Source: an uncultured Planctomycetia bacterium | GTDB lineage: Bacteria; Omnitrophota; Gorgyraeia; Tantalellales; Tantalellaceae | Length of the DNA: 52,909 nucleotides | Assembly: GCA_964421015.1 (NCBI GenBank) | Contig: CAYQUS010000006.1 | Location: forward strand, 47,096-100,004 | Reading direction: 5' to 3' | Shown here: positions 6,463-31,654 of the stretch, in pieces | How positions within the stretch are numbered: the stretch's first letter is position 1 | How the letters are laid out: each line of letters opens with the position of its first letter | Notes under the pieces: generated by a model | Told to the model about the DNA's origin: nothing | What the model saw: the letters and a program-made list of their open reading frames with translations, nothing else | The model's database searches: none | Program-made: the position numbers and the translations under genes

Positions 6463-6646
6463 GAAGAGGGAAGTAGGAAGAGGTCAAGGTTAAGGTTGGT
6501 GTTATAGGTGCCTGGCACGATCTTGTGCCTGGCACCCCCTGCTGTTTTCTTCGAAAACACCCGCTGGGGGTCATGGACCACGATGGCATGGGCCATCGTG
6601 GAAGCGAGGGAGAGCACCGAGCGAAGATTTTCTCGCCGGGAAAATC
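6460..6646. repeat. Cluster of short palindromes and hairpins after proS
   Basis: GTGCCTGGCAC at 6508 and 6525; stems TGTTTTC/GAAAACA (6543-6559), CCACGATGGC/GCCATCGTGG (6578-6601) and GATTTTC/GAAAATC (6626-6646). Confidence 0.8.
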
Positions 6647-17100: not shown

Positions 17101-20100
17101 TAGCAGAGATAATGTGCTGGAGCTTATTTCCCAGCTTAGAGAATCTTTTAAGCTGGTTGAAGGCAATAGCCTTTTTGGGAAATTTTACAGCGAGATATCT
17201 ACCGAAGGGTGGGACTACAACAGGTTCTTTAAGTATATTGCCCCTGAATCGGGAGTTGTAGGGAAAGAGGAGTATGAAAGGCTGTTGTTCGGCAGAAAGG
17301 ATGAAAATTACGAGAGGCTGATGGATTGTTTCCGAAACCGCGATGAAGACGCTTTTATGGAGGTGCTGCGCATCTCGGGGGTCTATAAAACCCTGAAATA
17401 TCTTTCTAAAGAAGATTATCCCGGGACAGCCGAGATTTTCGCCGCCGATGGAAATCTGCCGGCCTGGGTAGTTTCGGTCTTGGAAAAAAGATGGGAAGAT
17501 ATAGATGAGTACAGTTTTGGGGAAATTAAAGCGCTTTTAAGCTCATCGCACGTTCCAATGATAAACGATTTAGTTGAATTGTACAAGGCGGTGGAGCCGC
17601 CTATTGCCAAGATCATCTCGGCGAGCCAGATAATCGCGGGCTTGCCGGTGGATGACCATGTAGAAAATTACCTGAGTATGTCAAAAGAATTTCTGGATTC
17701 GGCCTCTGTTTCGGCGGCGATCAGCTCTATGAGCGTCGAAAATCAGGGGCTCCTCTTCGCGGGATTGGCAGCGATATTCCGCGGAAAGTTCGATTTTTTC
17801 TATGAACTTGAGGTGGAGAGGTACGGGGCTGTAGATGACTACCTGAAAATGCAAGCCTGGACCGACTATATAAAATTGACCCAGGAAAAACTTAAACTTG
17901 AACCCTCTCTGGAAGGCCTGGTAAACACTTACGATCTGTTTGTCAGGTTAACATACGCAAATTTTTACGGATATCACAGGTATGACGATATGCTTTATGC
18001 GGGATTAAGCGAATACAGCTCCGGGTGGATGTCCGAGATCAATCAGGTCTTTTATGAATCGCTTCTGAGACTTTCCGACGAAGCGTTGGATGTGACAAAA
18101 GACCAGGACCTGGCCGTTAAATATTACCTGGATATCATGGATAGATTTCCGGCTTCCGAGACAAAGAGGGGCATCCTTGATATTTTGGCGAGGCGCCTTG
18201 TCGACAAACTGGACGAAGCGCATCTTTCAATGTTTTTTGAAAGACTTTCCAGCAAAGGACACCTCAGTAAAAACGTGTACAGTTACTTTGTGTCAAAACG
18301 GATAAACACTTTTGAAGACAGCGAAAAGATGTCAAAATTCATAAGGGACCGTTATGCCAGGATGCTTTCGGGAGAAGATATTATCCCGGCTTTTATCGCC
18401 GGCATGGATACCGGGGGGGACCAGGCTCTATCCCCCGAAACAGCCAGTGATATTTTTTCAGCCGCCATGCTTTCGGGGAAAGATGAAAAAGTCCTATGGG
18501 AAGCCCTGGAGACACACTGGTATCAGATTTACGTGGGCGGAGCCAAAAGGCTGCTCTATTCCTTCGAGGTTAGAGACGGAAGGATAGAGGTGGTGGGTCT
18601 GGGAAGGGACAATTTTGTTCCACTGAAAACTTTCGTCGATAGTGTCCTTGATATGAGTGAAAACAGCAAGCTGGCATTAATGGAAAGACTTCTTGTTTCT
18701 CCCAACGGTCTTTTGCACCATGAATCCGGCAGGAAGCGTTTTGTAGAGCTCATTAGAGAGAATATTCCGGGGTCCGACAGCCTTTCAGCGATATTGAAGG
18801 AAGCGGTTGGTTCGGTCGTGGACAATGTGGACGCCGAGAGGGTATTTATGATGTTCCGTGATGTGATCAGGCCGTTTTTTCTCAGAAGACAGGAAGGGTT
18901 TACCGTGGAAGGAGAGTTTCTGAAAATGCTGGCACTCAGAAATATATCCAGAGTTGACGAGGATAACTATATTAATGAGGATAGCGTTACGCGCAATCTT
19001 AATGGGTTAAGTCCTGAAGTCTTCATGTCCCTGATCCGCGGAGATATCGAGAGAGCTCCCCTTGCCGCGCGGATAAACTATAGCAAGACCAGAAACGACT
19101 TTCTCTCAAGGTTTGGAGAAAAATTAGGTGTCGGATCTCTCCCCGAGAGCGAGGTTCCGCCTTCGGATGCGGGTGCTTTGGACATATTGATACTCGCCGC
19201 GGAAAGCCTTGGGCCTATGGGGGTGAGATCCCTGCAGGTCATGGGGCAGTATATGGATATACCGGCGGAATATGAAACCAGGTTCCGGGAGGTTTATGAC
19301 AGTAATGAAGGCATAGATAAGTTCATAGCGTTTGATATTCTTAAGAAATCGGCTGAGAGGGACCCGGGTGTTAAATATTTTCTCGAAAACGAGCTTGTAA
19401 GTATAGGCGATAAACTGGGAGGGGGCTCCATCATGACGGCGTTCCTTATCAAGGTCAAGGACCCAGCCACGGGAAAGATAAGGGACGAGGTACTCAAGGT
19501 GCGAGCGCCCAATGCGGAGGTAAGGGTAGACGATACTTATGAAAAACTTATACGAGTGGTAAGAGACATGAAGACCAGGGCGACCGCTTCTAAAAAAGCC
19601 AACTACGAGATAGCCGAGCGGCTCCTTTCAGATATCAGGGATTGGATCAGGGACGATATAAACGATGAAACGTTCCTTGAGCTTGACCAGAAGTACGCTG
19701 AATTCCACAAGAATTACAGGGACAGCAGGGGTACCAGGGTAAGGATACCGGGAGCCTTTTCTCCAAACAATAGGGATGTCAAGAGGGAAGAGCTGGTTAG
19801 GGGAGAGACCCTGAACAGTCTTCTTCGCGAAGGGAGAGGTGAAATTTTAAAACCGGCCGTGCAGGCTGTGGTTGAGGATTTTGCCCGCACCCTGGTAAAT
19901 CCTGTTTTTAACGATTCCGACGGCGAAGAGGTATTTCTTCTCCATTCGGATATCCATTTTGGTAATGCCATGGTGGAACAAAAAGACCCCGCGTCTACCG
20001 AAGATCTTACAGTAGCCCTTATAGATCGTAATCTGTACCTCAGGCTTACGCGAAAAGAAGTTGATTTTATGCGCTCCTTACTGCTGGCGGAAAATACGTC

Positions 20101-23100
20101 TGACATTGCGCATTTATCGAATGTGATAAAGTACTTTGCCGGTGACCTGAGCGGTGCCCGCCAGCTGGCTATTACGGCTTCCATCGCGAGAAAGATCAAA
20201 ATGGGAGGTGTTAAAAGCGGTATAGGGGCCCTGGCAATTATCCTTAAGGAGTTTGAGTTTAACTCCATTCACGTGCCGATAAGGATGCGGATACTCTTCA
20301 AGAACCTTTCGGCCATAGAAACGATGTTGAGAACGGTGGATGGAGGGGAGTTCAGGGATTATCTAAAGACGGTTATTGATCTAGAGCGAGAAGTTTCCGC
20401 GGAAAAGGAGACAGCGTCAAAAAGTTTTCATATGAGCGATGAAGCGCTTGCCGCTTTCAGAATTGAGATGCTTGAGCGGATCAAGGCAGGTAACAAGATG
20501 ACCATAGATGACGCGATAGGATATTTGGAAAGTGAAAAGGTTCCTGACTATTCTCCAATAATGATAGCTCTTGGAAACGCCAAAACCAAAGACCTCACAC
20601 GCGAAGATGATATAAACAGTCTTATGGAGGGTTTGAGTGAGGAAGAAGAGGTAGCATTAGCTATTCTTATCCAGCCCCGTCAGGGCGGGGGTGAGACCGG
20701 AGACACCGGCATCGTCGGAGAGATGCAGGAGGCGTCGCCTGTGCCCGAGGATGTTCATGTCGAAAAAGAAATCGAGGCTATGTCATCTGAAGCCGCACGT
20801 GAAAACAACGCCTATAATTACACGGTCTGTCTTGAACTGATAGCCGGGGATTACCATGCGAACATACCACTCACAGCTATCAATACGAATTTGGATGGCT
20901 CTGTAAGGGATGCCGAACTGTCAACAAAAACGCTAGTTGGCGTTCTAAACATACAAGATGACCGTTCCAAATACCTCTCCCTCCAGGAGATCACAAGAGC
21001 ATGTCCATTGTTAAGAGATACCTCCCAAGCAGGTAATGTATTAACCGAAGCACTAAGCATCGCCCGGAACATACAAGACGACTACTATAAATCACTCTCT
21101 CTCCAGGAGATCGCAAAGGCATATGTTTTGTTAAAAGACTATTCCCGGGCAGGTGAGATATTGCCCGAAGCGCTGAGTGTCGCCCTGAATATACTGAGTG
21201 ATCGTTCCAGATCCGTCTCTTTGCGGGAGATTGCAAGGGTATATATGACGATAGGCGTAGATGCCGGCCGTTTATCTGTGCTCCGGGGCCAATTTGAGAA
21301 CGTAAGGCGATTGGCGGAAGAGACATTCATGGATCCCAATATCGCGGGTCAAATCATAGCGACCCTGTTTAAAGAAAAAATATCTCCCGCTTCGATAAAT
21401 AACGAGAGCGACATAGTGGATCTCTTCTGGAAGATAAACGATCCGGCGGAGAAGAAGATCTTTTTAGAAAAGGTCATACAGCCCGCCTTTTTTAAAAATA
21501 GGTCGCTTTTTACGCAAGATGTGCTCGAAAAACTGCAAACGCTCTATCTCCGGGATGTCCCCGGGACGAAGCACATTCTCTTCTGGGCGAACATGAAAAG
21601 AGACGCGCCTTCTTTGTACCTTGATGAGGTTTTTAGCTTACATGGCTCCGTAGAAAGTATTCTTAAGAAAGGAAAGAAACGGGTATTGGTGGGCCATAAC
21701 GTGTATGACGGCCAGGGGGATGAGCTTATAATAAACGCCCCGCTTATCCAGGCGTTATTAGACTATAACCCTGAACTCGAAGTGACTATCATTACCCTTC
21801 GTCCATATCTTTACAGCCATCCCAGAATACATGTTCACGATATCGGGAAGGAAGATGTCGTTACGGATAGATTCTTTGATATGGTTGCGGATAGGCCCTT
21901 TGATATGGTTATTGAAGAATTCGATAGCTTGCCCGGATCCATAAAAACCGGCGCTTCGTTATTCCTTGACATAGAAATAGGTTCCATGTGGGGGTATAGG
22001 CCGCATCATGTTGAAAGAGGCGTCCAGAAGTATCATGTTGAGATAGAAGCTCAGAAGTATGTTATACAGATCGATGCCGATAACGTATATACCCCGGGGA
22101 TGGAGCTTATGGCCGAATTCGGACTTACTTTCAGGGCGGGTATTGAAAAAACGCAGAGTGGATGCATCTTCACATCTACTCCATATCAGATAGCCGAAGA
22201 TTATTGGGAAAACAAAGTATTACCCGCCGCCAAAGGCGCGAAAGAGATAGTTGTATTCAACGGTTTTGGGGGCATGCTTGAAGAGAAAGGATTCGCCCGC
22301 ACGTCTGAAGGCAGGGAGCAATTCCGAGAGGCGCTTACAGCCCTTATAGGTAGCGGGCGCTTTGTTGTTATTTTGCCAAACGATCAGGACTGGGGAACAG
22401 TCGAGGTGGCAAACACAATGATAAATTCGCTTTCTCCTGAGGCAAAGAAGTTCTGCATGATAGCCCCATCCCCTATCGAGGATCCTCTATTGCACAAATA
22501 CCTTGTCTCAAAGGCGGATCGGGTAGTGACAGTTGAAGGAGGCCTGATGCATCTCGCTTATAACATGGGCAAACCCTATGTTGTTCTTTTTGCGCAAGAC
22601 CCCGATACCATTAGAAGATGGGCTCCGGTGAGCGCGTCAAATGAGCAGAAGGCATATGTTTCCAACCTTTCCCCTGCAGCGATCATTGATAGTTATTTAA
22701 AGAACGTACCGCACCTTGCTCCAGCCATCGGGACGGCCGAACCCGAGACCGGCATCGTCGTCGCGATGAGCGGGGAGAAGGTGCCTGTGGTGGCGGAAGA
22801 AGCCCCCGAAGAGCGCGAGGCGCGCGAATTTATAGAAGCTAATGCTGACTTTGCCGCGGCGATAGCGCCGTATCGGTATCTTACAGACCGTTACGGTTAT
22901 CGCCCGTGGAAGGAACTGTACGACGCTGCCGGCCCCATTAAGTACGGCCATTTCGTTCAGGTTATCCCGGAACTTGCAAAGATCTTTACCAAAGAAAAGC
23001 TTATAGAATACTGGCCCGATATTGTCGAGATCGGTAAGACTGCTAGTTTCAATGTTCCATTACTTTTTTCTTCCATCCTGCCGGGACTAAAAAGTGCCTT

Positions 23101-26100
23101 CGGCACCGAATACTTGTCGGATATTCTCCGGTTGGGTAAAGAAGGTGGAAGTAACGGCTATCATGTTTTGGATGCTATCCTGAAACTCGAAGAAATTATT
23201 ACAACTAGAGATGAACTGAATAAGGTCGGAAGTGACCTCCTCGAACTCAGCAAGACGTCCGGAAAGAAAGGATGGCATCTTTTGGGTACGGGTATTTCGG
23301 CGGTCACAAAAACCTTCGCCGTCAAAGAGCTTAAAAACCGTTGGCCTGATCTCGTCAATATGGGTAAAGCGGCCGGAGTTGATGCAGGAAATCTTTTTGA
23401 ATACGGTATTCCGATGGTTGCGAAGGTTTTCACCGCAAAAGAGATGGATAGGGGTTGGCATTACCTTTCTAAGATAGCTATCGACGCCGGTCCGGCATCA
23501 TTATATCTTTTCGCGAAAGTGGTGCCGGCGCTCAGGGAATATCTTGTGGCCAAATGGGAGGATGAGGGATCGTTCGAAATGCCGCTACATGAGGTCGCAG
23601 CTGTTTTGTACGCGGAGGAAAAAGGACAAGACTTCGAGTTTGAGTTAAGTGCCAGGTCTGATGAAGAAAGTCTTGCCCGGATCGCGAGTCTGGCCTTGAA
23701 GTTTCTGGACGATAAAAAAGATCTCCACCTCCGGTATCTTGTCTATACCGGGAAATATGATGAAGTGAAAAAGTTGTTTGACGCTGGAGAATCTTCTCCA
23801 TCGGAGATCGCGGACATGGCTCTGGCAGTGAGGCAGGCCGATATAGCATCATATGCTACGGAGCTTGCTTTTTCAGGGAAGGACAGAGTCAAAACGGACA
23901 ATTACGGCAATATGATGCCGCTTCCTTACCTGGTACCGTTGAGTGACAGGATCGAAGTGCGGGCTGTTAGAAAAGAGGAGCTTATAAATGACCTTTCCAG
24001 CTTCGGGGTAAAAAAACCTTCAGAGGCGCTTGATGAAGCTTTAGCGAGGGGAGGTATGACAGTAAAGAACACCGCTGATGGTGATGTCATAGTCCCGGTT
24101 GTGCTCGATACCGTGTTGAGCGGTTACCGAGGGAGCCGCTCAGTTGATCATGTCAAGTCCACTTATCTTACATATGCTATCACTACCGTACTTTTTAAAT
24201 ACGCTAAGGATGGAGGTGCGCAGGCGAGTAGTGGCGAAAAAGGGGAAAGAGCCTCCGGGTTTACCGCCGTGCATGAGTTCGACGTCAATTTAATGAATCT
24301 TGCGGGGATGACCGAACGTTCGACAGATGACTATGTAGCGCGTGCTTTTTACTACGGTGAAGGTATGAGTCTGCCCGAATACGCCAGAAAAAGGAATATG
24401 GAAAACTATCCATTTACGCCCAGAGAGCAACTAGCCGAGCTTATGCGTTACCAGCGGAACGAACGCCGGGCAAAGCAGAACATCCGGCAGATATTCGAGT
24501 GGCTGTCGTCAGGCAGTCTAAGCGATGTCGAGGTCGCCTCCGCAATAGACGCCATGAGGAGAGAGCTCGCCGTGCTGGACCCGTGGTCCGGGACTTGCGG
24601 TCTGAATGAGGATTATTTCGACGCGGTGTACGGTTATCTTGACGGCAGATTCTTCGAAGATCTAACAACCGAATATAAGCCCGGCTCGGACAACAAGGTT
24701 ATTATCAACGGCCGGCTTAAAGATGCGATGTCGCGGCATAAGGTCCTGGTGACTCGGGCTGTCGGAGAGGCTCCGGAAGTGCGGTCCGATCATCCCTGGC
24801 TTGCTACAGGAATAACCCTGATCGACTATCTTGAAAACGAGGAGGTTATCCTTAAGGGAACGCCGAGTTACGCCGATCTTCGCACCATGAGAACGCCGGC
24901 GGATCTCGCGCCTGCCCCTGCGACCGGGGCGGCTGATCCGGAGACCCACGTCATCGGCGCGATGGACGAGGAGGAACCCGAGCCAGCTGCGCTCGCGGAA
25001 AAGAGCGGCAGTCATATGCCGGCTGGAACGGATAAGCTTTGGGTAGACGGTAGATTAAACAGCAGCGGCATTTTGCTTATGCACGCGTTAAACCATTTCC
25101 CTGAAGACGGGAGGCTTTATCCGAACAGTTATTTCGGGGACGAGCCCGTATTGATGAGAAATCCCCGCAACATCGTGGAGTTCTCATTCAATAATATCAT
25201 TCATTATTGGATGGAAGCCACATACATTGTCATCATACCGATGACTGCGATGCTGGATAGGCAATGGGTAAATATCTGGTATACAGCCACGTCTCATATG
25301 GGTCCGGTCTCTCTCCCTAAGGGTACGACAATAATGGTTCGAAGAGGCCGGGAGATATCAGAACAACAGATAGAGGCGTTAAAGGCAAAAGGTATAAGTA
25401 TTGTTTATTTCGATGAGAAAGGCTGGGCAGATTATGAAGCGGTCAATGTCGTTAAAGGCATGGGTTATGAACCTGTGACTATCTTTGGCGGTCCGTTTGG
25501 AGGGACAGATACAAGTTGGAAAAGTGAAAAGACGGATATGGATTACGGGAGCAAAGAAAACATGCCGCAGCTTAAGCAAGCCATAGGCCAACTGGCCGAA
25601 GAATTACATATTGCTTCAGCCGAGCCTACTTCCGAATATGACATAGGATACCTAACGATCTCTATGGAACTTCTGCATTCCGCATTTTTCGGAGGGGATC
25701 CGAACAGGCCTTCTGTCGATTGGGATGAATTCAACAGTTGTCACGAACGGGTTTTGAGAGACGGGAGATTTTCAGGGACCGAAGCTTGGACCAGGTTTAT
25801 GATGTTTGTTAAATTCTACAGGGACATATATCGTATTTACACTCTTGGGAACATGAAGTACCAGCACGCGTTGTTTTGGGTAAACCCAGATTATATAGAA
25901 TTTGCCATAGAAAATGACCCTGAGGAAGTTGAAGAGGCGTTGGTCTTGAGGGGCAGGATGCTGCAGGAATTCAATAAACTTTTTGATATCAATATCAGCG
26001 AAAGCGATCTTGCTTCAGAGGAAGATTTCAAGAAAGTTGCTGCTTTGGCGGCAGAAAAACGTTCTCAAGACGAAGCCGGCCTTCTTGCTTCCGCACCCAC

Positions 26101-29100
26101 CGCGAGCGGTGATCGAGTTGAAACTGCGGCCGCTGCTGACGGAGCGACCGATATCATCGGTGCGATGCTCGGGGATGCTGAACCCTCCGCACTGCCGGAT
26201 ACATACAGCTATTTCGCGAACGATCCTATAGGTAAAGATATTCCGAGAGAAGTAATTGAAGCCGGTATTACTGCGACAGGGAGAGGCGGTCTTTCATTCG
26301 GGTTTGCTAATTCCTCGGGCGAGATCCAGCTAAAGGCGCTCTCTAACAGTTTTAAGGAGCTTATTGCCCGGAAGAGATCTACCGGGGAGAGAACTCTAGT
26401 TATCCGCCAAATCGGACCGGGAGACGGCAGCGAAGCGGTTTCTATCTTGAGACGGCTTGACGATCTAATAGGATATGACCCGCAAGGAAAATGGGAGGTC
26501 ATAATAGATGTGGTTGATAATAACGAAAGTATTTTAGCGGAAGCCGAAGAGACCCTGGGAGCGGAGATGGCAGGGTTTGAGAATATAACGTGTAATGTCA
26601 GATATTCAAAAGCGGATGTTTTTGACGCGGCCGGTTTAAATGCGCTTAGAACAACCGGAGCGGCAGGCAGTACTGATTATATTATTTTCAGGAACGTGCT
26701 GAATATCAAACAGCATATCGACAGGGGGGATTTTGAATTAAAAGACATGGCGGCCTCGTTCATAGCTCTGCGGAATCTTATAGAGAACTTTGCCGGCGAG
26801 GATACAAAGCTTGTAATGGAGCCTTATCCGATACAGCCGCAGGACGGGCTTTTGGCCAACGGTATTTTGGATGCGGGCGATATAAAGAGTTTTCAAGAGG
26901 ACAACGGGTTCAGTAATTTTCTCAACTTGTTCGGAGCATCGGATATGATGCATATCGGCATATCAACGGCGTCGCCGGCAGAAGAGTTCCCGGCTGAGAT
27001 AAAGAACGAAGCGAAAAATATCCTGGAGGCAAGGATAGAAGCGTTAAAGGCCGATCCGGCACAGATATCAATGCTTATGGAAAATATCAGGGCGGCTTCC
27101 GTTCGGGGAAGAATGGATTTTGGAACGATCGCCGATATGGTAAAAGATTTTTATTTGATAACTTCCAGGGTGCCGCTCCCTGAAATTGAAGGCGGCAGGG
27201 AACCGGGCATACTTGAGTATGAGAGCGCCGGAGGTACTGTAAGATTTTTTGACGTCAATATCGGGACGATGGAGCCTGATGGCAAGGTTCTTTTGGCGCC
27301 AGAACTGTCTTCCGGTGATATCGGAATGGTTGTAAGGAATTCTGAAGATTATTTCAGGAACAATAAAGGACGTATAGCCGATATGGCCGCTGCCCGTTCT
27401 CTTGAAGCGGCGCGTAGTTTTATGTCGTTAGGGGAAGACAGAGAAGAGGAGAGAAAGAGCGCTCTTGAGGGCATGTGGAGGGATATCGTCGAGGAATCAA
27501 ACAGCTCCGACGAAATATGGTGTTTGGGCGCGGTATCCAGATTGAGCGCGTTACTGGCCATACACAAATATCTCGAGAGTGAAATGGGAGTCATCTTGCC
27601 GAGTTATTACAGATTTGTCACCGATACCGGTTCTTTTGAGGGTCAGGTAAAAGATAAAGGCCAAAGTTCTCCGATAGGGATTCTGGGGGAAAAGGTCGGG
27701 TTTGCCGTCGGGGTCTCAAAAGGCGATATTGAGAACATGCTGAAGAGCGGGACATTGGCCCATCCCGAGACGGGCGATTTAATAGAGCTTACAGAACGCG
27801 ATAAAGACAGGCTCAGCCGGCTTATTTCCGGTGCGGAGAAAGATGTATATGTTATTTCTTACGCTGATCTTTCCAGGGAAAAGTTAGAGGATATGCTTCC
27901 TAACCTTGGGAAATATATAGTCTCTTCCTTTGAGCCTCGCGCTGCGGAGATAGCTGAGGAGGTAATACAAGAGGATCCGGCCGACCGGACGGATGGCGAA
28001 GGCATGAGCCGCAGGGGTTTTCTAAAAGGAGTGGGGGCGATAGCTCTTACCGCGGCTATGGACACGGCGGCCTTGGACGTTGAAAGTTTCCTGGCCGAGG
28101 CTACCCCCGAAGAATTGGCGGAAAAATTGTTGACCCGGGATAATATCGACGAAACAAGCTTTGAAAAGATGACGAACGAATATGAGTATCTGACCCAGGC
28201 TTTCAGTAATACGAATTTCAGGGAATTTTCCAGGCACAAACCATCTGAAAAAGAGATAAGTTTTCTTGCCGGGTTAATAAGACACTGCCAGAAAGTGGAT
28301 ACTGAGAAACTAAACAAGCTGCTCGGGGCCGTTGAGAATGTGATTATCATAGAGAACGGTCCTCATGACGGAGGGGCGGGTTTTGGTGTGTTTTCCAATA
28401 ACAGCGTTGTGCTTGAATTTGACAGCGATCTGCCCACACTGAGCGAGGTGAGTACGCCGATATACGCGGGCCTTTTAATACATGAGGCGGCGCATGTGGA
28501 AGGGGCAAGAAAGGAAGTGCCTATAGAAGGCATATTGTCAGAAATATATGCCCGGCTCGAAGTTCTTGATTGGAAAGGTGTAGGCGCTAATTCCCAGTCC
28601 TGGATAGACGAAGAGCAGTATATGGTAGACATGATCACTTTGGGTATAGAGAAAGTTAAGGCGGAAAAGTCTATTGCCGGCACAAAGGTAACGCGGCACG
28701 ATATGGAAAAATCTGAAGCCGGCAAGGTATGGGACTACTACTGGGCTAATGGCGTTACAAGAATGGAAGCGGTCAGATTTATGGGCGCCGCGCGAGGTCT
28801 TTTGATGATGGAGGGCTACGCCGATTCCGAGGTAAAGTATATTTCCGGCACTGACAAACTTCGCCCTGACACGAAAGAGAGGGAAAAGGGACAGCCGGTG
28901 AAGGGGTATTGGATAGCATTTGATCTGGGAGGCGGGAAAACAGCTGAAATATTCTCAGGTGTAGATGAGAAAGGCGTTCTGTACGTCTTTTATGAAGGCG
29001 AGTGGACAAAGCTTTCGTTTAAACTTGAAGAGGCCAAGGCGAAGATGGGCCGGGGATTTGACGGCATAGGGGAATTGACCGTAGCCGCGTCGGCAAAATG

Positions 29101-31654
29101 GTACAAGGGTATGAAGGATGATAAAGAGGAACAGGAGGAGAGGGAAGCGCTTTCGCCGTCTCTGGATCTGGAAGAATTAACAGCGGCTCTCGATACTAAT
29201 CCGGCTATGGACGTCCGGGAATTTCATAAAGCCACAGACAGTTTTATTAGCACAAGATCCAACGGTTTGTATGATCTTTTTAATAACGCCGATCAGGATA
29301 TTCGCCGTGCTGAGCTGGAAAGGATAGTGAGGAGAAAATATGCCGGGAAATATATGGGTGAAATACCTGCGCACATACTCAAGGATAAAAATGGAAAGGA
29401 TGTTGTTAGCCGCGAAGGTGATAGAATACTTGTTGTAGCCCGCGGAATGCTTAAACCTTTTTCGCTTTTCGCTAGAGTGGAAAATGAAAAACCCCTGCCG
29501 GGGCTGTCTGTTATATGGGTCGATACTGCTTTTTACGGCAACGAGGAACTGGAAAATCTTATTTTGTCGGGAAACCCGGCTGAAAGATCGGAGGATGTTT
29601 TAGGGGGTCTTTACCGGACTCTCCCTGATAGTCTGAAAAATGAGATCGGTCAAGCGAGGATCAACAGGATATTCGACCGGATCCATACGGCAGCGCAGAC
29701 CCATCTGAATGAGTACTATTCGATGAGAGCTCACCCCGACGTGGCCGCGCCTAAAAAAGAGAAGGAGAGAGAGCTGCCCATACTTACGGTAAAAGTGAAT
29801 TCTGACGGAAAGCTGGCTTTTGCTCAGGGATGGATGAATACGATACAGTTCCGAATTGATATGCACGAATGGTCGAGCGAGGATGAATTGGCTTTTGTGG
29901 TGGCACATGAATGTGACCACATATGGCGCGACAAAGATTTTGATCATGATAATTTCGGACTTATGGTAGCGGCGCAGATAATGGCGGATGAAGGCGGAGT
30001 TCATCTTATGAAGTGGGCCGGGTTCGATCCGGATGGGGCCATAGAGGCTTTCGACAAATGGGTGGATACGGAGGCTAACAGGACGAGAGCTCCCGAAAAA
30101 AGTCTAGGGGAAATATCTGCCAGAAAGGCTGCTCTAAGATCGGCCGTTGAGACTTTTAAGGACATTTCTTCCGATAGTGAAATGAAAGATAGTTCCGGCG
30201 ACGAGGTAGAAATTCTGTCTAGATCCGGGAGCCTTATCGGCAAGGTTGAGGTCGAGGTTGATGGTAAACTGAAAGTTTTGACCGATGGTTTCGCGGCCAG
30301 GGAAGTAACAAGGGATGGCAAGAAAATGTTATCTGTTTCTCATGCCGAACTCGCGGAAGACATAGCGGTAGGCCTCGGTGAAGAAGTTGAGGACGCGGGC
30401 GCGGTGAATAGCGCCGTAAGCTCGCTTTTGAGCGGCGCGAAGTTCCTCAATGCCGGATATGACGCTGAGCTAAAACAACTTATGGAAGAGAAACTGTTAA
30501 ATATAACGCGCATAGTCGCGCTTGAGCCTAACGAAAATATTGTGGGATTTTTCTCGGACAATACACTCTATGTAAATGAAAGTCTTCTTGCCGACAATAT
30601 GGCGCTTATACATGAACTTGGCGAAAGCCTGGCCGAAGGGTTTATAGCCTCTATTACTGCTGAATACCCGGGCATAAATATGCATACTTACATGCGCGGC
30701 GCCGGGAAGGATGTTCACAGGGCCTATAGCGCGCTTAAAGATCCGGCTTCGATCTTGAAAGAAAGCGGCGCAAGGGGACTGATCGACGCCATAAATGTTA
30801 AGATGAAAGAGCTTACCGGGAGGCCGGAAATGTCCCCGGCAGAAGAAGCTCTTATACTGCTGAACGCTTCTCAAAGAGGGACAGCGGTTTCTCCGGACAA
30901 GGATCCGACCCGGGGTCTTCTTTTCGGGTTCCAGGACAGGCTTGACCCCTCGGGCAACGTAAGGCTTTCTAAACATATCGGTCAGGTGCTTAACGACATG
31001 AATAGAGGAGCGCTTAACATAATGGTACTTCCTGCTGGTGATATAATGTCAGAGGCGGCCAAGAAGTCGGCCGGCCGGCAGGCCTCGAGAACCTTGGAAC
31101 GGAAGTTTGGCACAAACACCCGGGTATACAGTTTTACCTCTGATATTGTTTCTTCTATAAAAACAGCCATGGCCGAGGCAGAGAAGGCCATGGAGAACAC
31201 ACAGGAAAAAGTTTATCCGAAAATATTCGTTAACTGTGTGAGCCTTGAGCAGAAGAATAACGAGGTTATGCCTTACCTGGAAACTCTATCTCCTGACGCG
31301 AGAAATATGATAGTGGTAAATTATGAAAATATACCTGATGCCGAAAGGTCCACGATAGACGAAGTGGCCATGATAATGGTGGGTAGCGCGATATTGAACG
31401 ATCATAGGCTCAGTGTAGACTTTAAACTGCCGAAAGAAGCGTTATCCGAGGGCAGAAAGAACATGATAACCGCTTTTAGCGAGGCGGGAATAATAGAGAT
31501 AGAGGAAAACGATGACCTTGCTACGGCCGAGGGGCTAGACAGCATAATGCAGAAGTTCTACACCGGACAGAGGCCTCTTACCATAAACAAGATAAACTGG
31601 CAGGAACTCCGAGATTACCAGGACTCCATGGATCTTATACTTAAGTCGGCGTAA
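8153..31654 (+). CDS. Giant (7833 aa) exported multi-domain protein
   Basis: Uninterrupted 23.5 kb ORF with an N-terminal signal-peptide-like segment. Motifs read by eye: IQDAH..EGG..GGFH (8453-9658), SLT-like (10300-10900), HExxH at 12329, 15416, 16043, 28481 and 29906, FHA (14150-14320), SAM-MTases (14480-15060; 26250-26900), ABC1-like kinase (19180-20360), TPR-like repeats (20930-21260), GT9-like (21670-22700). Confidence 0.93.
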   Translation: MKMLSTKIAATDKGTIGNKAKRRFKALVSMVTAVAFLSNTLMYDSALASQVSARYAQDHSGTGAKNGYDELGADNFSIPDFLGEIKSRHDSAGSGTMVVHIQDAHCNYDCQKAISGIISYIQENYGINTVNLEGGDGLYDLSVFTDIQDAPVREKVADYFVNEGILSGAEYFSAVFPEKTELWGIEDPGLYAANRDVYRSSLKNIAAVNSALSVIHTQLNALKDSTYSDDLKDLDKKYGEYKSGEMDLKDYLSFLFLRGDERGVDRGAYPNISSLYETAEQEKNIDFRAANSQRHLLIDRMGRNLPPKIVGELGVKTLKFRSGEISQTEFYEFLSKMSLRAGISLSEFPELEKYIKYVSLYDSIDKSAVISEMSSLEEDLCRRFSSGEKDRELWEISRNLTFLENMFATRLTREEYSRYKSGPEDFSAARITAFIEKENPAGKLEIRLASAAAEIDRQKDEISGFYEYSFKRDDVFLEKMKFSSRGEGGKRRYAMLVTGGFHSENLGEIFRKKGFSYVAVMPKFRNCEGYESPYYRLLGGEESPVIAAIKQNASASASALALYGFFCATSGEVNGDADVNAVKTWVKLVTAVFSQDLSDGPVDVDGAYRVSEASSDESDDAAGIVLDVDGRKVIVTYLSSAQESAADGRLSRRNFLKMLGIGAATAIIPVRSEAEEEPTREEKESQISEYLMSGSLDGIKISEQYLSKVKEFISDRVFSDIPTIYSESQLPPWFLFRHYCALEFGETGTSAPGKSGLHVSKANAHGPIQMWTDQAVQLNKNLTTWRTSKRSKDSPRDREKLKALEESFAKFGFNIDKGIEVARIKKDAKYSVAMAVANLRLIFMDWERFFEKGADPVERNVMERQKRFYTLSLVALHNSSPITVKLAIQNGGEAWVEKLRDETIGLMWRFCVFLKAVNTDPDVAALFAEIDPQINIPEDAFLSGEESPVPLMATRELEPVNFDEIMSRVDEAAYAKEKQSSNKVNELTMKSFGIFDLVIYALAGAGAAVISRRMLFPLKNNTHATKERTMQDKSIDMVARVFAEYGKEISYEEAKFVWLAMQEDLRIGGMDDSPLAVQRGLVRLISEMSPDGFLDAFTEEYGTPESPAERLLNSLRNIFSPGREGSDSDDVNIAAGGSIKVTHTDVNKFVGDNLPRGLWGESLEERAENLDNLVEEGTAKVRVTDDGTEVVLIPIKGLFRACGQFGHIGLGRAYGRPVAWIDSDYMDNDIVIGHELYEIDRWEQHRKTLGYDPDMMRGWIRANFDQARKLAVTWHNDNKYSVEDLFLENKTGVQVERLDSILTRMKVFYSGEKFKEYMRSLAVKYAENGLELVNIDGLEGELLSRIEEIISGVDLKVLSESRSPIGIRGSTIEVLLAYAEYMSDEELAIVLGHEVGHELADIFLPELSPDAKFLRQAAALPTDLAIIGEDGEFLSIIHQVYRHGGKKRESAENEIQQRELFSDEIGIFLAGAILPAELRIRAGEIAGDVLNKTSEFIDNNLKDDSGSGFLSVRTHPSIEARAANLGFGLGIKTAVMLTGVDPLKEVAGEDKADEISGSYPLRDLLSIFVETYGTDFDPQEIDRDVNLAAGPGTGVSPLRKKPLLGVILDHVKTLGHKPGDEIIVGFTSDGIPIKGIFRGMDEYGEEIIFSPTGFNFGAILGKNKVLSSERYLLFNRYAENGSLIIGGKKHSLSGLDFGHEKFPEIEGMSLREVLRYMAIAEEGGWYAWDYPLVSGYDLATKNETEEDKRSLAGRPRGGMAFYSLKEGRLVTYMYTSVEVPNGKGVEWRIARIESGKPLPQNETAAPSYLVNGIRDVEDMGQENFENFFDMYCLTDSWDRSLIRAMAAVLRGEKDAEKLKNLLRPFDKWGDEVRVSPEDVRAYMEARAEYTALRGDDDKRRTGFYSARSFLMGLYDETEKSENYFRYFGAVKDSAMNKLASLDDVLRRYSSVRFPSEKEVSPEVQKTAGEVKSGDSISFGSETFVLEFKGGKYLIAGKVLEDGGTYSVGRGSENYIRVLNGSVSREHAVIKVYDGKVFIEDKSSMNGTFVNGKKIASPTESKPGQRKEAASSSRVYAVFNNWQKGLVNIAGSMDEVKAHNYDDTSMFHIVPVDVPQDVYVGAHQSSIISARAAADIDNVKPGSRVLVIGTGMGLEAYIAMGRGAHVDAVDINPSALKSTENLCGKLPPEGRGSLRTFLYDVMPGGIRENALADEYDLIIFNMPHYAAPTSGDDKEITATRDPGGQLIGPTSEIVKTRLASGGRAVLVNTEGENVRKTLESQIGLTVFPDPIYGMDPSMAYVVENGNNAILNDLIDLLGIDVSRNFGVRKQLVALAELIRRKQLAAGGVSVPEVTEGDLAGINIPDIIVKVNRLNGKTLGMLGMGGMMPGAAKAQSLMVNLLSGRAPVTNMFLRAWGVVSTPFHEFAHYLAALMFGANPKLSVSGLFTGEITIDRAPPSKAATYLIYSAGLLANLALAGASAYYLLNYGQTVSVFAWVLLTWVAAANAASAIIELVGAPFGKGDLAKARARRVDDSEVFKGDVKELVLDTRVLGLIKFMNESSGFLKLDHPIVSKLQEYVDRMTGQGMRAPRLLIAIDGESPDAFRVPGNIVINLALIRALDTLGEVVSVIAHELGHEEAPEKVFNNIGSGRMHELSADHDAVEKVTAMDFPSNSMENALRKIIKPRSFQDAVHGSLSHRIVPILAGWALNDLEARYGALSRDEQSIPDTWKFGIQKSVYEKLIYGNPNREFYRALEGASFDLVKDTLEKIMKDSPLGEYSDTPKRGEHVLSEKVLAMLNRMNAILEDTAIKEGLGDDERNAIFLGATKVMNEPVFRPPYSDKGIAYFEDSAKWKYTLIARGDHKKATKSERAITAIMRSRIEQYLKTLDPLNLRGEITAKHFASPVYFSPSAHSIELMIHDKEIAKNIFGVGYISEESPIFISNMISFLEKFNGEMSGYERQSIVGGIFIRFIELYWERKAWTFSRDNVLELISQLRESFKLVEGNSLFGKFYSEISTEGWDYNRFFKYIAPESGVVGKEEYERLLFGRKDENYERLMDCFRNRDEDAFMEVLRISGVYKTLKYLSKEDYPGTAEIFAADGNLPAWVVSVLEKRWEDIDEYSFGEIKALLSSSHVPMINDLVELYKAVEPPIAKIISASQIIAGLPVDDHVENYLSMSKEFLDSASVSAAISSMSVENQGLLFAGLAAIFRGKFDFFYELEVERYGAVDDYLKMQAWTDYIKLTQEKLKLEPSLEGLVNTYDLFVRLTYANFYGYHRYDDMLYAGLSEYSSGWMSEINQVFYESLLRLSDEALDVTKDQDLAVKYYLDIMDRFPASETKRGILDILARRLVDKLDEAHLSMFFERLSSKGHLSKNVYSYFVSKRINTFEDSEKMSKFIRDRYARMLSGEDIIPAFIAGMDTGGDQALSPETASDIFSAAMLSGKDEKVLWEALETHWYQIYVGGAKRLLYSFEVRDGRIEVVGLGRDNFVPLKTFVDSVLDMSENSKLALMERLLVSPNGLLHHESGRKRFVELIRENIPGSDSLSAILKEAVGSVVDNVDAERVFMMFRDVIRPFFLRRQEGFTVEGEFLKMLALRNISRVDEDNYINEDSVTRNLNGLSPEVFMSLIRGDIERAPLAARINYSKTRNDFLSRFGEKLGVGSLPESEVPPSDAGALDILILAAESLGPMGVRSLQVMGQYMDIPAEYETRFREVYDSNEGIDKFIAFDILKKSAERDPGVKYFLENELVSIGDKLGGGSIMTAFLIKVKDPATGKIRDEVLKVRAPNAEVRVDDTYEKLIRVVRDMKTRATASKKANYEIAERLLSDIRDWIRDDINDETFLELDQKYAEFHKNYRDSRGTRVRIPGAFSPNNRDVKREELVRGETLNSLLREGRGEILKPAVQAVVEDFARTLVNPVFNDSDGEEVFLLHSDIHFGNAMVEQKDPASTEDLTVALIDRNLYLRLTRKEVDFMRSLLLAENTSDIAHLSNVIKYFAGDLSGARQLAITASIARKIKMGGVKSGIGALAIILKEFEFNSIHVPIRMRILFKNLSAIETMLRTVDGGEFRDYLKTVIDLEREVSAEKETASKSFHMSDEALAAFRIEMLERIKAGNKMTIDDAIGYLESEKVPDYSPIMIALGNAKTKDLTREDDINSLMEGLSEEEEVALAILIQPRQGGGETGDTGIVGEMQEASPVPEDVHVEKEIEAMSSEAARENNAYNYTVCLELIAGDYHANIPLTAINTNLDGSVRDAELSTKTLVGVLNIQDDRSKYLSLQEITRACPLLRDTSQAGNVLTEALSIARNIQDDYYKSLSLQEIAKAYVLLKDYSRAGEILPEALSVALNILSDRSRSVSLREIARVYMTIGVDAGRLSVLRGQFENVRRLAEETFMDPNIAGQIIATLFKEKISPASINNESDIVDLFWKINDPAEKKIFLEKVIQPAFFKNRSLFTQDVLEKLQTLYLRDVPGTKHILFWANMKRDAPSLYLDEVFSLHGSVESILKKGKKRVLVGHNVYDGQGDELIINAPLIQALLDYNPELEVTIITLRPYLYSHPRIHVHDIGKEDVVTDRFFDMVADRPFDMVIEEFDSLPGSIKTGASLFLDIEIGSMWGYRPHHVERGVQKYHVEIEAQKYVIQIDADNVYTPGMELMAEFGLTFRAGIEKTQSGCIFTSTPYQIAEDYWENKVLPAAKGAKEIVVFNGFGGMLEEKGFARTSEGREQFREALTALIGSGRFVVILPNDQDWGTVEVANTMINSLSPEAKKFCMIAPSPIEDPLLHKYLVSKADRVVTVEGGLMHLAYNMGKPYVVLFAQDPDTIRRWAPVSASNEQKAYVSNLSPAAIIDSYLKNVPHLAPAIGTAEPETGIVVAMSGEKVPVVAEEAPEEREAREFIEANADFAAAIAPYRYLTDRYGYRPWKELYDAAGPIKYGHFVQVIPELAKIFTKEKLIEYWPDIVEIGKTASFNVPLLFSSILPGLKSAFGTEYLSDILRLGKEGGSNGYHVLDAILKLEEIITTRDELNKVGSDLLELSKTSGKKGWHLLGTGISAVTKTFAVKELKNRWPDLVNMGKAAGVDAGNLFEYGIPMVAKVFTAKEMDRGWHYLSKIAIDAGPASLYLFAKVVPALREYLVAKWEDEGSFEMPLHEVAAVLYAEEKGQDFEFELSARSDEESLARIASLALKFLDDKKDLHLRYLVYTGKYDEVKKLFDAGESSPSEIADMALAVRQADIASYATELAFSGKDRVKTDNYGNMMPLPYLVPLSDRIEVRAVRKEELINDLSSFGVKKPSEALDEALARGGMTVKNTADGDVIVPVVLDTVLSGYRGSRSVDHVKSTYLTYAITTVLFKYAKDGGAQASSGEKGERASGFTAVHEFDVNLMNLAGMTERSTDDYVARAFYYGEGMSLPEYARKRNMENYPFTPREQLAELMRYQRNERRAKQNIRQIFEWLSSGSLSDVEVASAIDAMRRELAVLDPWSGTCGLNEDYFDAVYGYLDGRFFEDLTTEYKPGSDNKVIINGRLKDAMSRHKVLVTRAVGEAPEVRSDHPWLATGITLIDYLENEEVILKGTPSYADLRTMRTPADLAPAPATGAADPETHVIGAMDEEEPEPAALAEKSGSHMPAGTDKLWVDGRLNSSGILLMHALNHFPEDGRLYPNSYFGDEPVLMRNPRNIVEFSFNNIIHYWMEATYIVIIPMTAMLDRQWVNIWYTATSHMGPVSLPKGTTIMVRRGREISEQQIEALKAKGISIVYFDEKGWADYEAVNVVKGMGYEPVTIFGGPFGGTDTSWKSEKTDMDYGSKENMPQLKQAIGQLAEELHIASAEPTSEYDIGYLTISMELLHSAFFGGDPNRPSVDWDEFNSCHERVLRDGRFSGTEAWTRFMMFVKFYRDIYRIYTLGNMKYQHALFWVNPDYIEFAIENDPEEVEEALVLRGRMLQEFNKLFDINISESDLASEEDFKKVAALAAEKRSQDEAGLLASAPTASGDRVETAAAADGATDIIGAMLGDAEPSALPDTYSYFANDPIGKDIPREVIEAGITATGRGGLSFGFANSSGEIQLKALSNSFKELIARKRSTGERTLVIRQIGPGDGSEAVSILRRLDDLIGYDPQGKWEVIIDVVDNNESILAEAEETLGAEMAGFENITCNVRYSKADVFDAAGLNALRTTGAAGSTDYIIFRNVLNIKQHIDRGDFELKDMAASFIALRNLIENFAGEDTKLVMEPYPIQPQDGLLANGILDAGDIKSFQEDNGFSNFLNLFGASDMMHIGISTASPAEEFPAEIKNEAKNILEARIEALKADPAQISMLMENIRAASVRGRMDFGTIADMVKDFYLITSRVPLPEIEGGREPGILEYESAGGTVRFFDVNIGTMEPDGKVLLAPELSSGDIGMVVRNSEDYFRNNKGRIADMAAARSLEAARSFMSLGEDREEERKSALEGMWRDIVEESNSSDEIWCLGAVSRLSALLAIHKYLESEMGVILPSYYRFVTDTGSFEGQVKDKGQSSPIGILGEKVGFAVGVSKGDIENMLKSGTLAHPETGDLIELTERDKDRLSRLISGAEKDVYVISYADLSREKLEDMLPNLGKYIVSSFEPRAAEIAEEVIQEDPADRTDGEGMSRRGFLKGVGAIALTAAMDTAALDVESFLAEATPEELAEKLLTRDNIDETSFEKMTNEYEYLTQAFSNTNFREFSRHKPSEKEISFLAGLIRHCQKVDTEKLNKLLGAVENVIIIENGPHDGGAGFGVFSNNSVVLEFDSDLPTLSEVSTPIYAGLLIHEAAHVEGARKEVPIEGILSEIYARLEVLDWKGVGANSQSWIDEEQYMVDMITLGIEKVKAEKSIAGTKVTRHDMEKSEAGKVWDYYWANGVTRMEAVRFMGAARGLLMMEGYADSEVKYISGTDKLRPDTKEREKGQPVKGYWIAFDLGGGKTAEIFSGVDEKGVLYVFYEGEWTKLSFKLEEAKAKMGRGFDGIGELTVAASAKWYKGMKDDKEEQEEREALSPSLDLEELTAALDTNPAMDVREFHKATDSFISTRSNGLYDLFNNADQDIRRAELERIVRRKYAGKYMGEIPAHILKDKNGKDVVSREGDRILVVARGMLKPFSLFARVENEKPLPGLSVIWVDTAFYGNEELENLILSGNPAERSEDVLGGLYRTLPDSLKNEIGQARINRIFDRIHTAAQTHLNEYYSMRAHPDVAAPKKEKERELPILTVKVNSDGKLAFAQGWMNTIQFRIDMHEWSSEDELAFVVAHECDHIWRDKDFDHDNFGLMVAAQIMADEGGVHLMKWAGFDPDGAIEAFDKWVDTEANRTRAPEKSLGEISARKAALRSAVETFKDISSDSEMKDSSGDEVEILSRSGSLIGKVEVEVDGKLKVLTDGFAAREVTRDGKKMLSVSHAELAEDIAVGLGEEVEDAGAVNSAVSSLLSGAKFLNAGYDAELKQLMEEKLLNITRIVALEPNENIVGFFSDNTLYVNESLLADNMALIHELGESLAEGFIASITAEYPGINMHTYMRGAGKDVHRAYSALKDPASILKESGARGLIDAINVKMKELTGRPEMSPAEEALILLNASQRGTAVSPDKDPTRGLLFGFQDRLDPSGNVRLSKHIGQVLNDMNRGALNIMVLPAGDIMSEAAKKSAGRQASRTLERKFGTNTRVYSFTSDIVSSIKTAMAEAEKAMENTQEKVYPKIFVNCVSLEQKNNEVMPYLETLSPDARNMIVVNYENIPDAERSTIDEVAMIMVGSAILNDHRLSVDFKLPKEALSEGRKNMITAFSEAGIIEIEENDDLATAEGLDSIMQKFYTGQRPLTINKINWQELRDYQDSMDLILKSA

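Follow-up and report, generated by a model that had tools for sequence, protein, structure and literature searches.

The 52,909-nucleotide (nt) window analysed here is a stretch of contig CAYQUS010000006.1 from an uncultured bacterium placed in the Omnitrophota (assembly GCA_964421015.1). The housekeeping genes cdsA, dxr, rseP, ispG and proS lie upstream, and rimP, nusA, infB, trpS, scpAB and aromatic amino-acid genes downstream, of a single giant open reading frame (ORF; 8153-31654, plus strand), which spans 23.5 kb and encodes a multi-module, "multi-enzyme" protein of 7,833 amino acids (aa) with an N-terminal anchor. Within this one ORF, the peptide T-x-[IV]-[IV]-[GV]-[AE]-M occurs four times, its methionine falling at aa 4191, 4872, 5604 and 6005, and each copy is embedded in a GC-rich spacer that is rich in acidic residues and proline. 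An earlier sequence-only reading had described four related linkers between unrelated domains, each followed by an acidic/Pro-rich spacer, and had suggested that they may be cassette junctions or repeated cleavage sites; the peptides, the corresponding DNA strings and the spacers were all confirmed. The four linkers are interpreted here, with moderate confidence, as copies of one DNA repeat, specific to the lineage and lying in frame, that serves as a junction for the gain or loss of entire modules.

The first copy has the core GACACCGGCATCGTCGGAGAGATG (DTGIVGEM) at 20702-20725, inside an extended linker at approximately 20672-20755 that encodes the peptide GETGDTGIVGEM at 20690-20725. The second core, GAGACCGGCATCGTCGTCGCGATG (ETGIVVAM), is located at 22745-22768 (extended linker ~22700-22810; AEPETGIVVAM at 22736-22768), the third, GAGACCCACGTCATCGGCGCGATG (ETHVIGAM), at 24941-24964 (extended linker ~24908-25015; ADPETHVIGAM at 24932-24964) and the fourth, GCGACCGATATCATCGGTGCGATG (ATDIIGAM), at 26144-26167 (extended linker ~26081-26203; ADGATDIIGAM at 26135-26167). 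All four cores are encoded on the plus strand, end in ATG and follow a consensus of 21-24 nt, ACC-NNN-RTC-RTC-GKN-GNG-ATG. An independent repeat search groups them into one 24-nt direct-repeat family with 71-83% identity. Enrichment over chance, on which the earlier proposal hinged, is found at both levels: the peptide expression T.[IV][IV][GV][AE]M, which was set post hoc, gives four matches where 0.005 are expected (2,000 shuffles), and the DNA pattern ACCNNNRTCRTCGKNGNGATG, with at most one mismatch, gives four matches, all on the plus strand, against 0.00 in 100 dinucleotide-preserving shuffles. These counts rule out a chance origin of the repeats. A hidden Markov model (HMM) built from the four copies detects no further copy in the giant protein. 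The copies are also not fragments of a longer repeated domain, as a self-BLAST aligns linkers 2 and 3 only, over 21 aa, and a conserved RNA structure is rejected, since the predicted folds differ among the copies (z-scores of -1.2, -3.0, +0.4 and 0.0).

The surroundings of the repeats have the character of flexible spacers. Linkers 1, 3 and 4 rank among the seven segments of the giant protein that are most linker-like and low in complexity, and the extended linkers 3 and 4 are predicted to be disordered. The domain between these two linkers, module C, was modelled together with both of them in AlphaFold2 (AF2) using a 12-sequence alignment; in the two spacers modelled, the predicted local distance difference test (pLDDT) is only 23-29, the motif included, and they show neither secondary structure nor packing on module C. 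Domain scans with Pfam and NCBIfam, applied to the whole giant protein and to single modules, recognise few modules and assign the linker to no known family.

The four linkers separate modules that show no mutual similarity in the self-BLAST, in agreement with the earlier description of the flanking domains as unrelated. Module A (20765-22699, plus strand) combines TPR-like 120-nt repeats with a GT9-like glycosyltransferase that precedes linker 2. In module B (22811-24907, plus strand), helical repeats of the YWPDLVRLG type (B1) precede a conserved domain (B2) with the terminal sequence ...GTFDxVDVSTVxLxDL. Module C (25022-26080, plus strand) is a conserved domain of unknown function of about 350 residues, present in 15 or more proteins, for which AF2 predicts a mixed alpha/beta N-terminal half and a helical C-terminal half (pLDDT ~85-95); it has no Pfam, NCBIfam or PDB fold match. 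Module D (26204-26995, plus strand) follows linker 4 and includes a very weak CheR-like methyltransferase region. An exhaustive HMMER search with aa 4840-6039 as the query returned 125 relatives, many of them 2,000-7,500 aa long, and the BLAST coverage of the giant protein by these homologues drops at the linkers. At linker 2, four or five homologues are aligned, compared with 20 or more right after it. Coverage reaches 42 at the end of module B, falls to five at linker 3, rises to 16 over module C and is one or two at linker 4. These minima identify linkers 2, 3 and 4 as borders of independently occurring modules; the border at linker 1 is drawn from Pfam only, with a weak ABC1-kinase-like match directly before the linker and TPR and GT9 domains after it. 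Module B is present in dozens of other architectures, and past its terminal ...GTFDxVDVSTVxLxDL the spacer and the next module differ in every relative. About 14 large relatives also have the N-terminal 500-residue domain of the giant protein, so that the family resembles a constant head with variable modules. Within module A, smaller tandem duplications are found in frame, namely 2 x 120 nt of the TPR-like repeat that are 73% identical (within 20948-21187), 2 x 24 nt (DVVTDRFF / DMVADRPF; 21854-21901) and 2 x 27 nt (HHVERGVQK / YHVEIEAQK; 22005-22058), which point to slippage-type events in the giant gene.

Comparison of the four copies at the codon level separates the core sharply from its flanks. 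In a codon alignment of the six copy pairs, codons for the same residue are identical in 16 of 19 cases in the 8-codon core, compared with 12 of 46 in the flanks, and third-position identity is 74% in the core versus 23% in the flanks, the latter value being close to random. Codon choice in the cores is uniform, with GTC for all four valines, ACC for all four threonines and GCG for all three alanines, and includes non-preferred codons. All five isoleucines are encoded by ATC, a codon used for 26% of isoleucines gene-wide and for 12-14% in the housekeeping genes of the window, where ATA accounts for 78%. Here, the first and second codon positions of the core vary (ATC/GTC, GGN/GTC and GCG/GAG, yielding I/V, G/V and A/E) and the third positions are constant. 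Fixed third positions combined with varying first and second positions are the opposite of what purifying selection on the peptide produces in old copies. The core is thus either constrained as a nucleotide sequence or the only part that was recently copied and, judging from this codon comparison, the conserved object is the DNA.

A difference in module content is observed in L004, the only close relative compared, which carries a 974-residue gene fragment (P0037) and aligns with the window by BLASTN at 74-94% nucleotide identity. Three blocks are obtained: L004 1-249 corresponds to window 24658-24906 (74%), L004 269-1070 to window 26195-26993 (84%) and L004 1056-2922 to window 27966-29841 (94%). 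L004 is without window 24907-26194, a segment made up precisely of linker 3, module C and linker 4, so that module B is joined directly to module D. The missing segment is replaced by 19 nt that contain GAG ACC GTG GTT (E-T-V-V), and the sequence at the junction is ATG GTT GAG ACC GTG GTT (M-V-E-T-V-V). A second in-frame segment of 972 nt (26994-27965, plus strand; aa ~6282-6605) is also absent from L004. A weak direct repeat flanks this segment, with GAAGAGTTCCCGGCTGAG at 26981-26998 and CAAGAGGATCCGGCCGAC at 27968-27985 (EEFPAE / QEDPAD; 12 of 18 positions identical), and the corresponding L004 junction, EELPEA, aligns colinearly with one hybrid copy of this repeat. Both whole-module differences therefore break inside spacers, and one pair of breakpoints lies inside the motif-bearing linkers 3 and 4. 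This single presence/absence polymorphism of module C bears directly on the proposal that module gain or loss maps to the linker, and together with the homologue borders and the conservation of synonymous sites it supports the cassette-junction part of the sequence-only reading.

Among the other relatives, the motif itself does not recur. Searches with linker HMMs find no ET-x-IVGAM motif in any of the 125 relatives, beyond a weak relative in P0002, and a signal general to giant proteins is rejected on this basis. A wider D-x-A-M linker motif was considered in the relatives and dropped, with nine observed against 3.6 expected and no clear enrichment. A profile search of the linker motif in a word-indexed protein collection returned five candidates and no match; negatives of this collection are unreliable, as the word-indexed search recovered none of the 125 relatives found by exhaustive HMMER, including one that is 64% identical over 355 residues. 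The homologous-protein search likewise gave nothing for module C despite these 125 relatives, and for module A a sole homologue, the GT9-like P0001, which is without such a linker. A scan of genome contigs yielded two spurious 32-residue matches only. In P0002, which is 48% identical, a related leader precedes the same helical module (AADPDGAVIQSIPETAEPVVAEESPEELEAREFIE versus ...AEPETGIVVAMSGEKVPVVAEEAPEEREAREFIE in the giant protein); it replaces both invariant residues, T by G and M by I, and the module upstream is a GNAT-like acetyltransferase, as identified by sequence motif, rather than GT9.

The same pattern is nevertheless present in other giant genes, with different sequences. P0003 has its N-terminal domain in common with the giant protein and contains a module C that is 58-64% identical. 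Its own repeat, [TS]P[EK]FPR[IL]D (TPEFPRID), is present three times (L005 19180-19200, 19909-19929 and 21058-21078), including directly before and after module C, and is encoded by CCC RAA TTT CCG CGG MTT GAY; among these codons, CCC (17%) and CGG (14%) are seldom used in that gene. P0011, which also has this N-terminal domain, carries PVPSEPGTA four times (L006 ~16648-21470), encoded by CCT GTC CCC TCG GAA CCC GGT ACC GCA (GGT 14%, GAA 30%). The repeats of both P0003 and P0011 are conserved at synonymous sites and use rare codons. Since module C is bordered in each of two different genes by a junction sequence peculiar to that gene, a motif travelling with the module is disfavoured; host-specific junctions around module C fit an insertion in which a site of the host was duplicated or used again. 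A third type is seen in P0084 (L008), with about 11 copies of [GA][KA]SLG (EGKSLG), several of which are preceded by E-[DE]-E-I-F.

The regions delimited by such repeats have a composition unlike that of the remainder of their genes. In P0003, the GC content at third codon positions (GC3) is 0.37-0.38 in aa 3001-3750 versus 0.46-0.58 elsewhere, and in P0011 it is 0.60-0.76 from about aa 4500 onwards versus 0.74-0.87 in aa 3001-4500. The giant gene of the window is itself a compositional mosaic within one ORF: ATA encodes 70-76% of the isoleucines in its N-terminal domain and last 1,200 residues, as in the neighbouring genes (78%), but only 24-57% in the central modules (aa 3001-6605). The unlike ATA usage of the central modules suggests that they are later arrivals.

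The preferred reading can be formulated as follows. Each junction repeat occupies the centre of a GC-rich, disordered spacer between enzyme modules that are independently mobile. If two copies recombined or slipped during replication, or if a copy paired in this way with a donor gene that contains the sequence, an entire module would be lost, duplicated or inserted and the 23.5-kb ORF would stay intact. A module change without a break of the ORF is conceivable because all copies share orientation and reading frame. The encoded peptide would mainly be a tolerated passenger in the flexible spacer. Recombination at the repeat is the probable cause of the gains and losses, each event may have run in either direction, and the enzymology may be short-homology recombination or slippage, or a dedicated recombinase.

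Several observations weigh against this interpretation. With a length of 21-24 nt and an identity of 71-83%, the copies are neither long enough nor similar enough for homologous recombination to be efficient at present. No recombinase gene, neither an integrase nor an invertase, is found among the flanking genes examined, which cover up to about 46 kb of the window and 3-10 kb on both sides of the giant genes in L005, L006 and L008. The L004 junction MVETVV is far shorter than a clean recombinant between linkers 3 and 4, so that further indels or another history must be assumed, and the EEFPAE / QEDPAD repeat is marginal (shuffle p ~0.05). The nominal P values of the core-versus-flank contrast, 2e-5 and 5e-9, are overstated because the six pairwise comparisons are not independent; the contrast itself is large. 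A function of the peptide would fit equally well with the conservative nature of the I/V changes in the core and with the related hydrophobic strand AADPDGAVIQSI retained in P0002. In P0084, the motif peptide is kept across synonymous changes (AGT TTG GGG versus TCG CTT GGT), which implies selection on the peptide itself in at least one of these proteins.

Some further features of the giant protein are relevant to the alternatives. Domain searches identify an FHA domain (aa 2005-2063), a HemK-like methyltransferase (aa 2111-2276) and an M48-like peptidase (aa 2574-2645), and this M48-like module is among five HExxH sites in the protein. Two segments resembling signals for twin-arginine translocation (Tat) are located inside the ORF. 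The first, SRRNFLKMLGIGAATAIIPV at 10103-10162 (aa 651-670), scores 17.6 bits with NCBIfam TIGR01409 against a cut-off of 16.7. The second, MSRRGFLKGVGAIALTAAM at 28007-28060 (aa 6619-6636), is preceded by a methionine (MSRRGFLK...), resembles an entire Tat-substrate N-terminus and is also kept in L004; internal RRxF[LI]K segments of a similar kind occur in P0013 and P0029. Such Tat-like segments point to gene starts that were absorbed, to membrane anchors within the chain or to processing.

The N-terminal domain (8330-9832; aa 60-560) has the invariant motifs IQDxH...AQ...EG and GGFH and is modelled by AF2 with a pLDDT of 86. It has no Pfam hit and no credible sequence match in PDB, where troponin C hits are at chance level (E ~0.006), and a fold search against PDB returned nothing significant; the erythromycin esterase EreC, ChaN and HopBA1 are among the weak fold matches, a hint of a possible hydrolase of the EreA/ChaN/Tiki-like superfamily. 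Another sequence, DVN[IL]AAG, occurs twice (11540-11560 and 12902-12922), both times with F-x-E-x-YGT before it and IPIKG[LI]FR within some 45-60 residues after it, and may represent a diverged duplicated module or another type of junction. Among the relatives, GGID[LF] is observed 23 times, with 0.4 expected, near the C-termini of 21 proteins (P0004, P0013, P0024, P0043, P0046 and P0093 among them). It opens a conserved C-terminal segment, GGIDLtPanmnLqtq..g.giKFhlDPAMLqqLqnapGFvPvI, which is possibly a sorting or anchoring domain and which the giant protein does not have.

The other part of the sequence-only reading, that of repeated proteolytic sites, is considered unlikely. According to this explanation, a polyprotein would be cut in the linkers at T-x-[IV][IV]-G-A-M, by its own HExxH module or by a protease acting in trans, to release modules A to D. 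It draws on the exposure of the motif in predicted disordered spacers, on the five HExxH sites and on the intact twin-arginine-like signals deep in the ORF, one of them directly after a methionine and kept in L004, which would be most sensible with a free N-terminus. Peptide-level conservation of the P0084 motif points the same way, and protein-specific motifs are expected if proteases and their sites coevolve. Cleavage has also been proposed in the giant-gene literature (bioRxiv 10.1101/2023.11.21.568195). On sequence evidence, however, the synonymous-site pattern does not favour a cleavage site, since the synonymous sites of the core are conserved and the non-synonymous ones vary, as expected if DNA rather than peptide is conserved. 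The motif is not kept at the L004 junction between modules B and D (MVETVV), P0002 changes T to G and M to I, and the motif marks only four of the many module borders in the protein. Pfam and NCBIfam scans recognise no autoprocessing domain (C80, C39, S8, Hint or SEA), P0084 has its 11 motif copies without any HExxH, and no protease could be linked to the motif. In cis-autoproteolytic domains, the scissile bond is embedded in a fold of at least some 100 residues; a domain of this kind (Hint/intein, SEA, GPS or Nup98-type) was not found at the linkers, which are unstructured in the model and have no Pfam domain over them. Sorting signals of the sortase (LPXTG) or PEP-CTERM type are rejected as well, because the motifs are internal, are followed by acidic/Pro-rich spacers and contain PETG in one copy only.

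It is improbable, but conceivable, that gene-specific, in-frame att-like sites integrate and excise protein-domain cassettes, forming a "domain integron" that builds polypeptides instead of operons, with ET-x-IVGAM being the translation of the site. A rival explanation, in which the repeats are targets of a dedicated site-specific recombinase within a programmed, integron- or shufflon-like domain cassette system inside one ORF, appears quite improbable. The sharp edges of the conservation, with cores of 21-27 nt and unalignable flanks, would suit such targets, as would their gene-specific sequence and the arrangement of cassettes of foreign composition in arrays. A palindrome, CATCG-N3-6-CGATG, occurs in the window only at linkers 2-4 (0.2 expected), and core palindromes are also seen in P0003 (TCCGCGGA) and P0011 (CGGTACCG); these palindromes are short (8-13 nt), were noticed post hoc and are not relied on. 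Against such a system, none of the four giant genes examined has a recombinase gene beside it, the copies differ at 4-7 of 24 positions, and no excised or rearranged variant was observed.

Vestigial gene-fusion joints represent a very improbable explanation, in which the invariant methionine is the former start codon of a separate gene and the upstream codons are remnants of shared upstream or junction sequence. All cores end in ATG, unit D of L004 likewise starts with a methionine despite its different upstream sequence, and the Tat-substrate-like N-terminus MSRRGFLKGVGAIALTAAM would show that at least one formerly N-terminal sequence was absorbed into the ORF. However, a Shine-Dalgarno sequence at usable distance is found at none of the four linkers, compared with 15 of the 21 genes in the window, and this difference also rules out internal translation starts. 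In addition, P0002 has isoleucine in place of the methionine, the junction repeats of P0003 and P0011 lack a methionine, and the DNA-level conservation of seven upstream codons is left unexplained by a fusion joint. Finally, a short docking peptide under peptide-level selection, forming a beta-strand that binds a chaperone, a secretion component or another module, is hardly credible: its hydrophobic beta-branched core between flexible acidic/Pro flanks, the conservative I/V exchanges and the related strand in P0002 would suit it, but no structure is predicted, the synonymous-site pattern favours DNA and the motif is absent from relatives with the same modules.

Two questions are open in the field, namely how bacteria assemble genes that span tens of kilobases and whether the encoded proteins work as a single chain or as many. 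A junction repeat as interpreted here provides a searchable signature, which consists of short DNA repeats that lie in frame at the borders of foreign-looking modules, are specific to their gene and are conserved at synonymous sites, and which is seen in the giant gene of the window and in two giant genes with the same N-terminal domain (P0003 and P0011). If the signature is general, it would allow module boundaries to be located without structure prediction and would reveal the sites at which such genes grow or shrink. It would also flag the peptides to be inspected first in proteomic tests of processing.

Several known systems resemble the giant gene in part. In polymorphic toxins, junction motifs (VENN in CdiA, PxxxxDPxGL in Rhs) separate a constant region from modules that can be exchanged and are regarded as recombination points; the Rhs motif doubles as a cleavage site. 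A short conserved sequence at a module border is shared with the giant gene. In polymorphic toxins, however, a single junction with a motif common to the family precedes a toxin and an immunity gene, whereas the giant gene has four serial, gene-specific junctions between enzyme-like modules; its motif is absent from the 125 homologues and the downstream genes are rimP, nusA and infB, with no immunity gene. Shufflons of hsdS and pilV and the invertible segments of phage tail fibres exchange modules in frame through short inverted repeats in coding sequence, with an adjacent recombinase. In contrast, the repeats of the giant gene are direct and no recombinase is nearby. In MARTX toxins, content varies by recombination and modules are released by processing of the linkers, with a C80 cysteine protease that cuts after Leu. 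MARTX linkers are not known to be DNA-level repeats. The giant protein shares with them an array of unrelated modules with unstructured linkers, but Pfam and NCBIfam detect no C80, C39 or S8 domain in it, and the invariant residues of its motif are T and M, with no invariant Leu. MARTX toxins are very large proteins with a central array of unrelated modules, unstructured linkers and strain-variable content (PMC6315884, PMC5555677). Since no family-wide motif with an immunity gene, no C80 domain or invariant Leu and no adjacent recombinase is found, the resemblance to the polymorphic-toxin, MARTX and shufflon systems is functional and not familial. For the Omnitrophota giant genes, cleavage into products has been proposed, with the cleavage points stated to be unknown (bioRxiv 10.1101/2023.11.21.568195). 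Text searches of two papers on the giant genes of this phylum yielded nothing on linkers or polyproteins and, in the one searched for these words, no occurrence of "motif" or "junction". With the giant multi-enzyme proteins of the Omnitrophota, the protein encoded in the window shares its length of several thousand residues, its membrane anchor and its methyltransferase, glycosyltransferase, kinase-like and peptidase-like modules.

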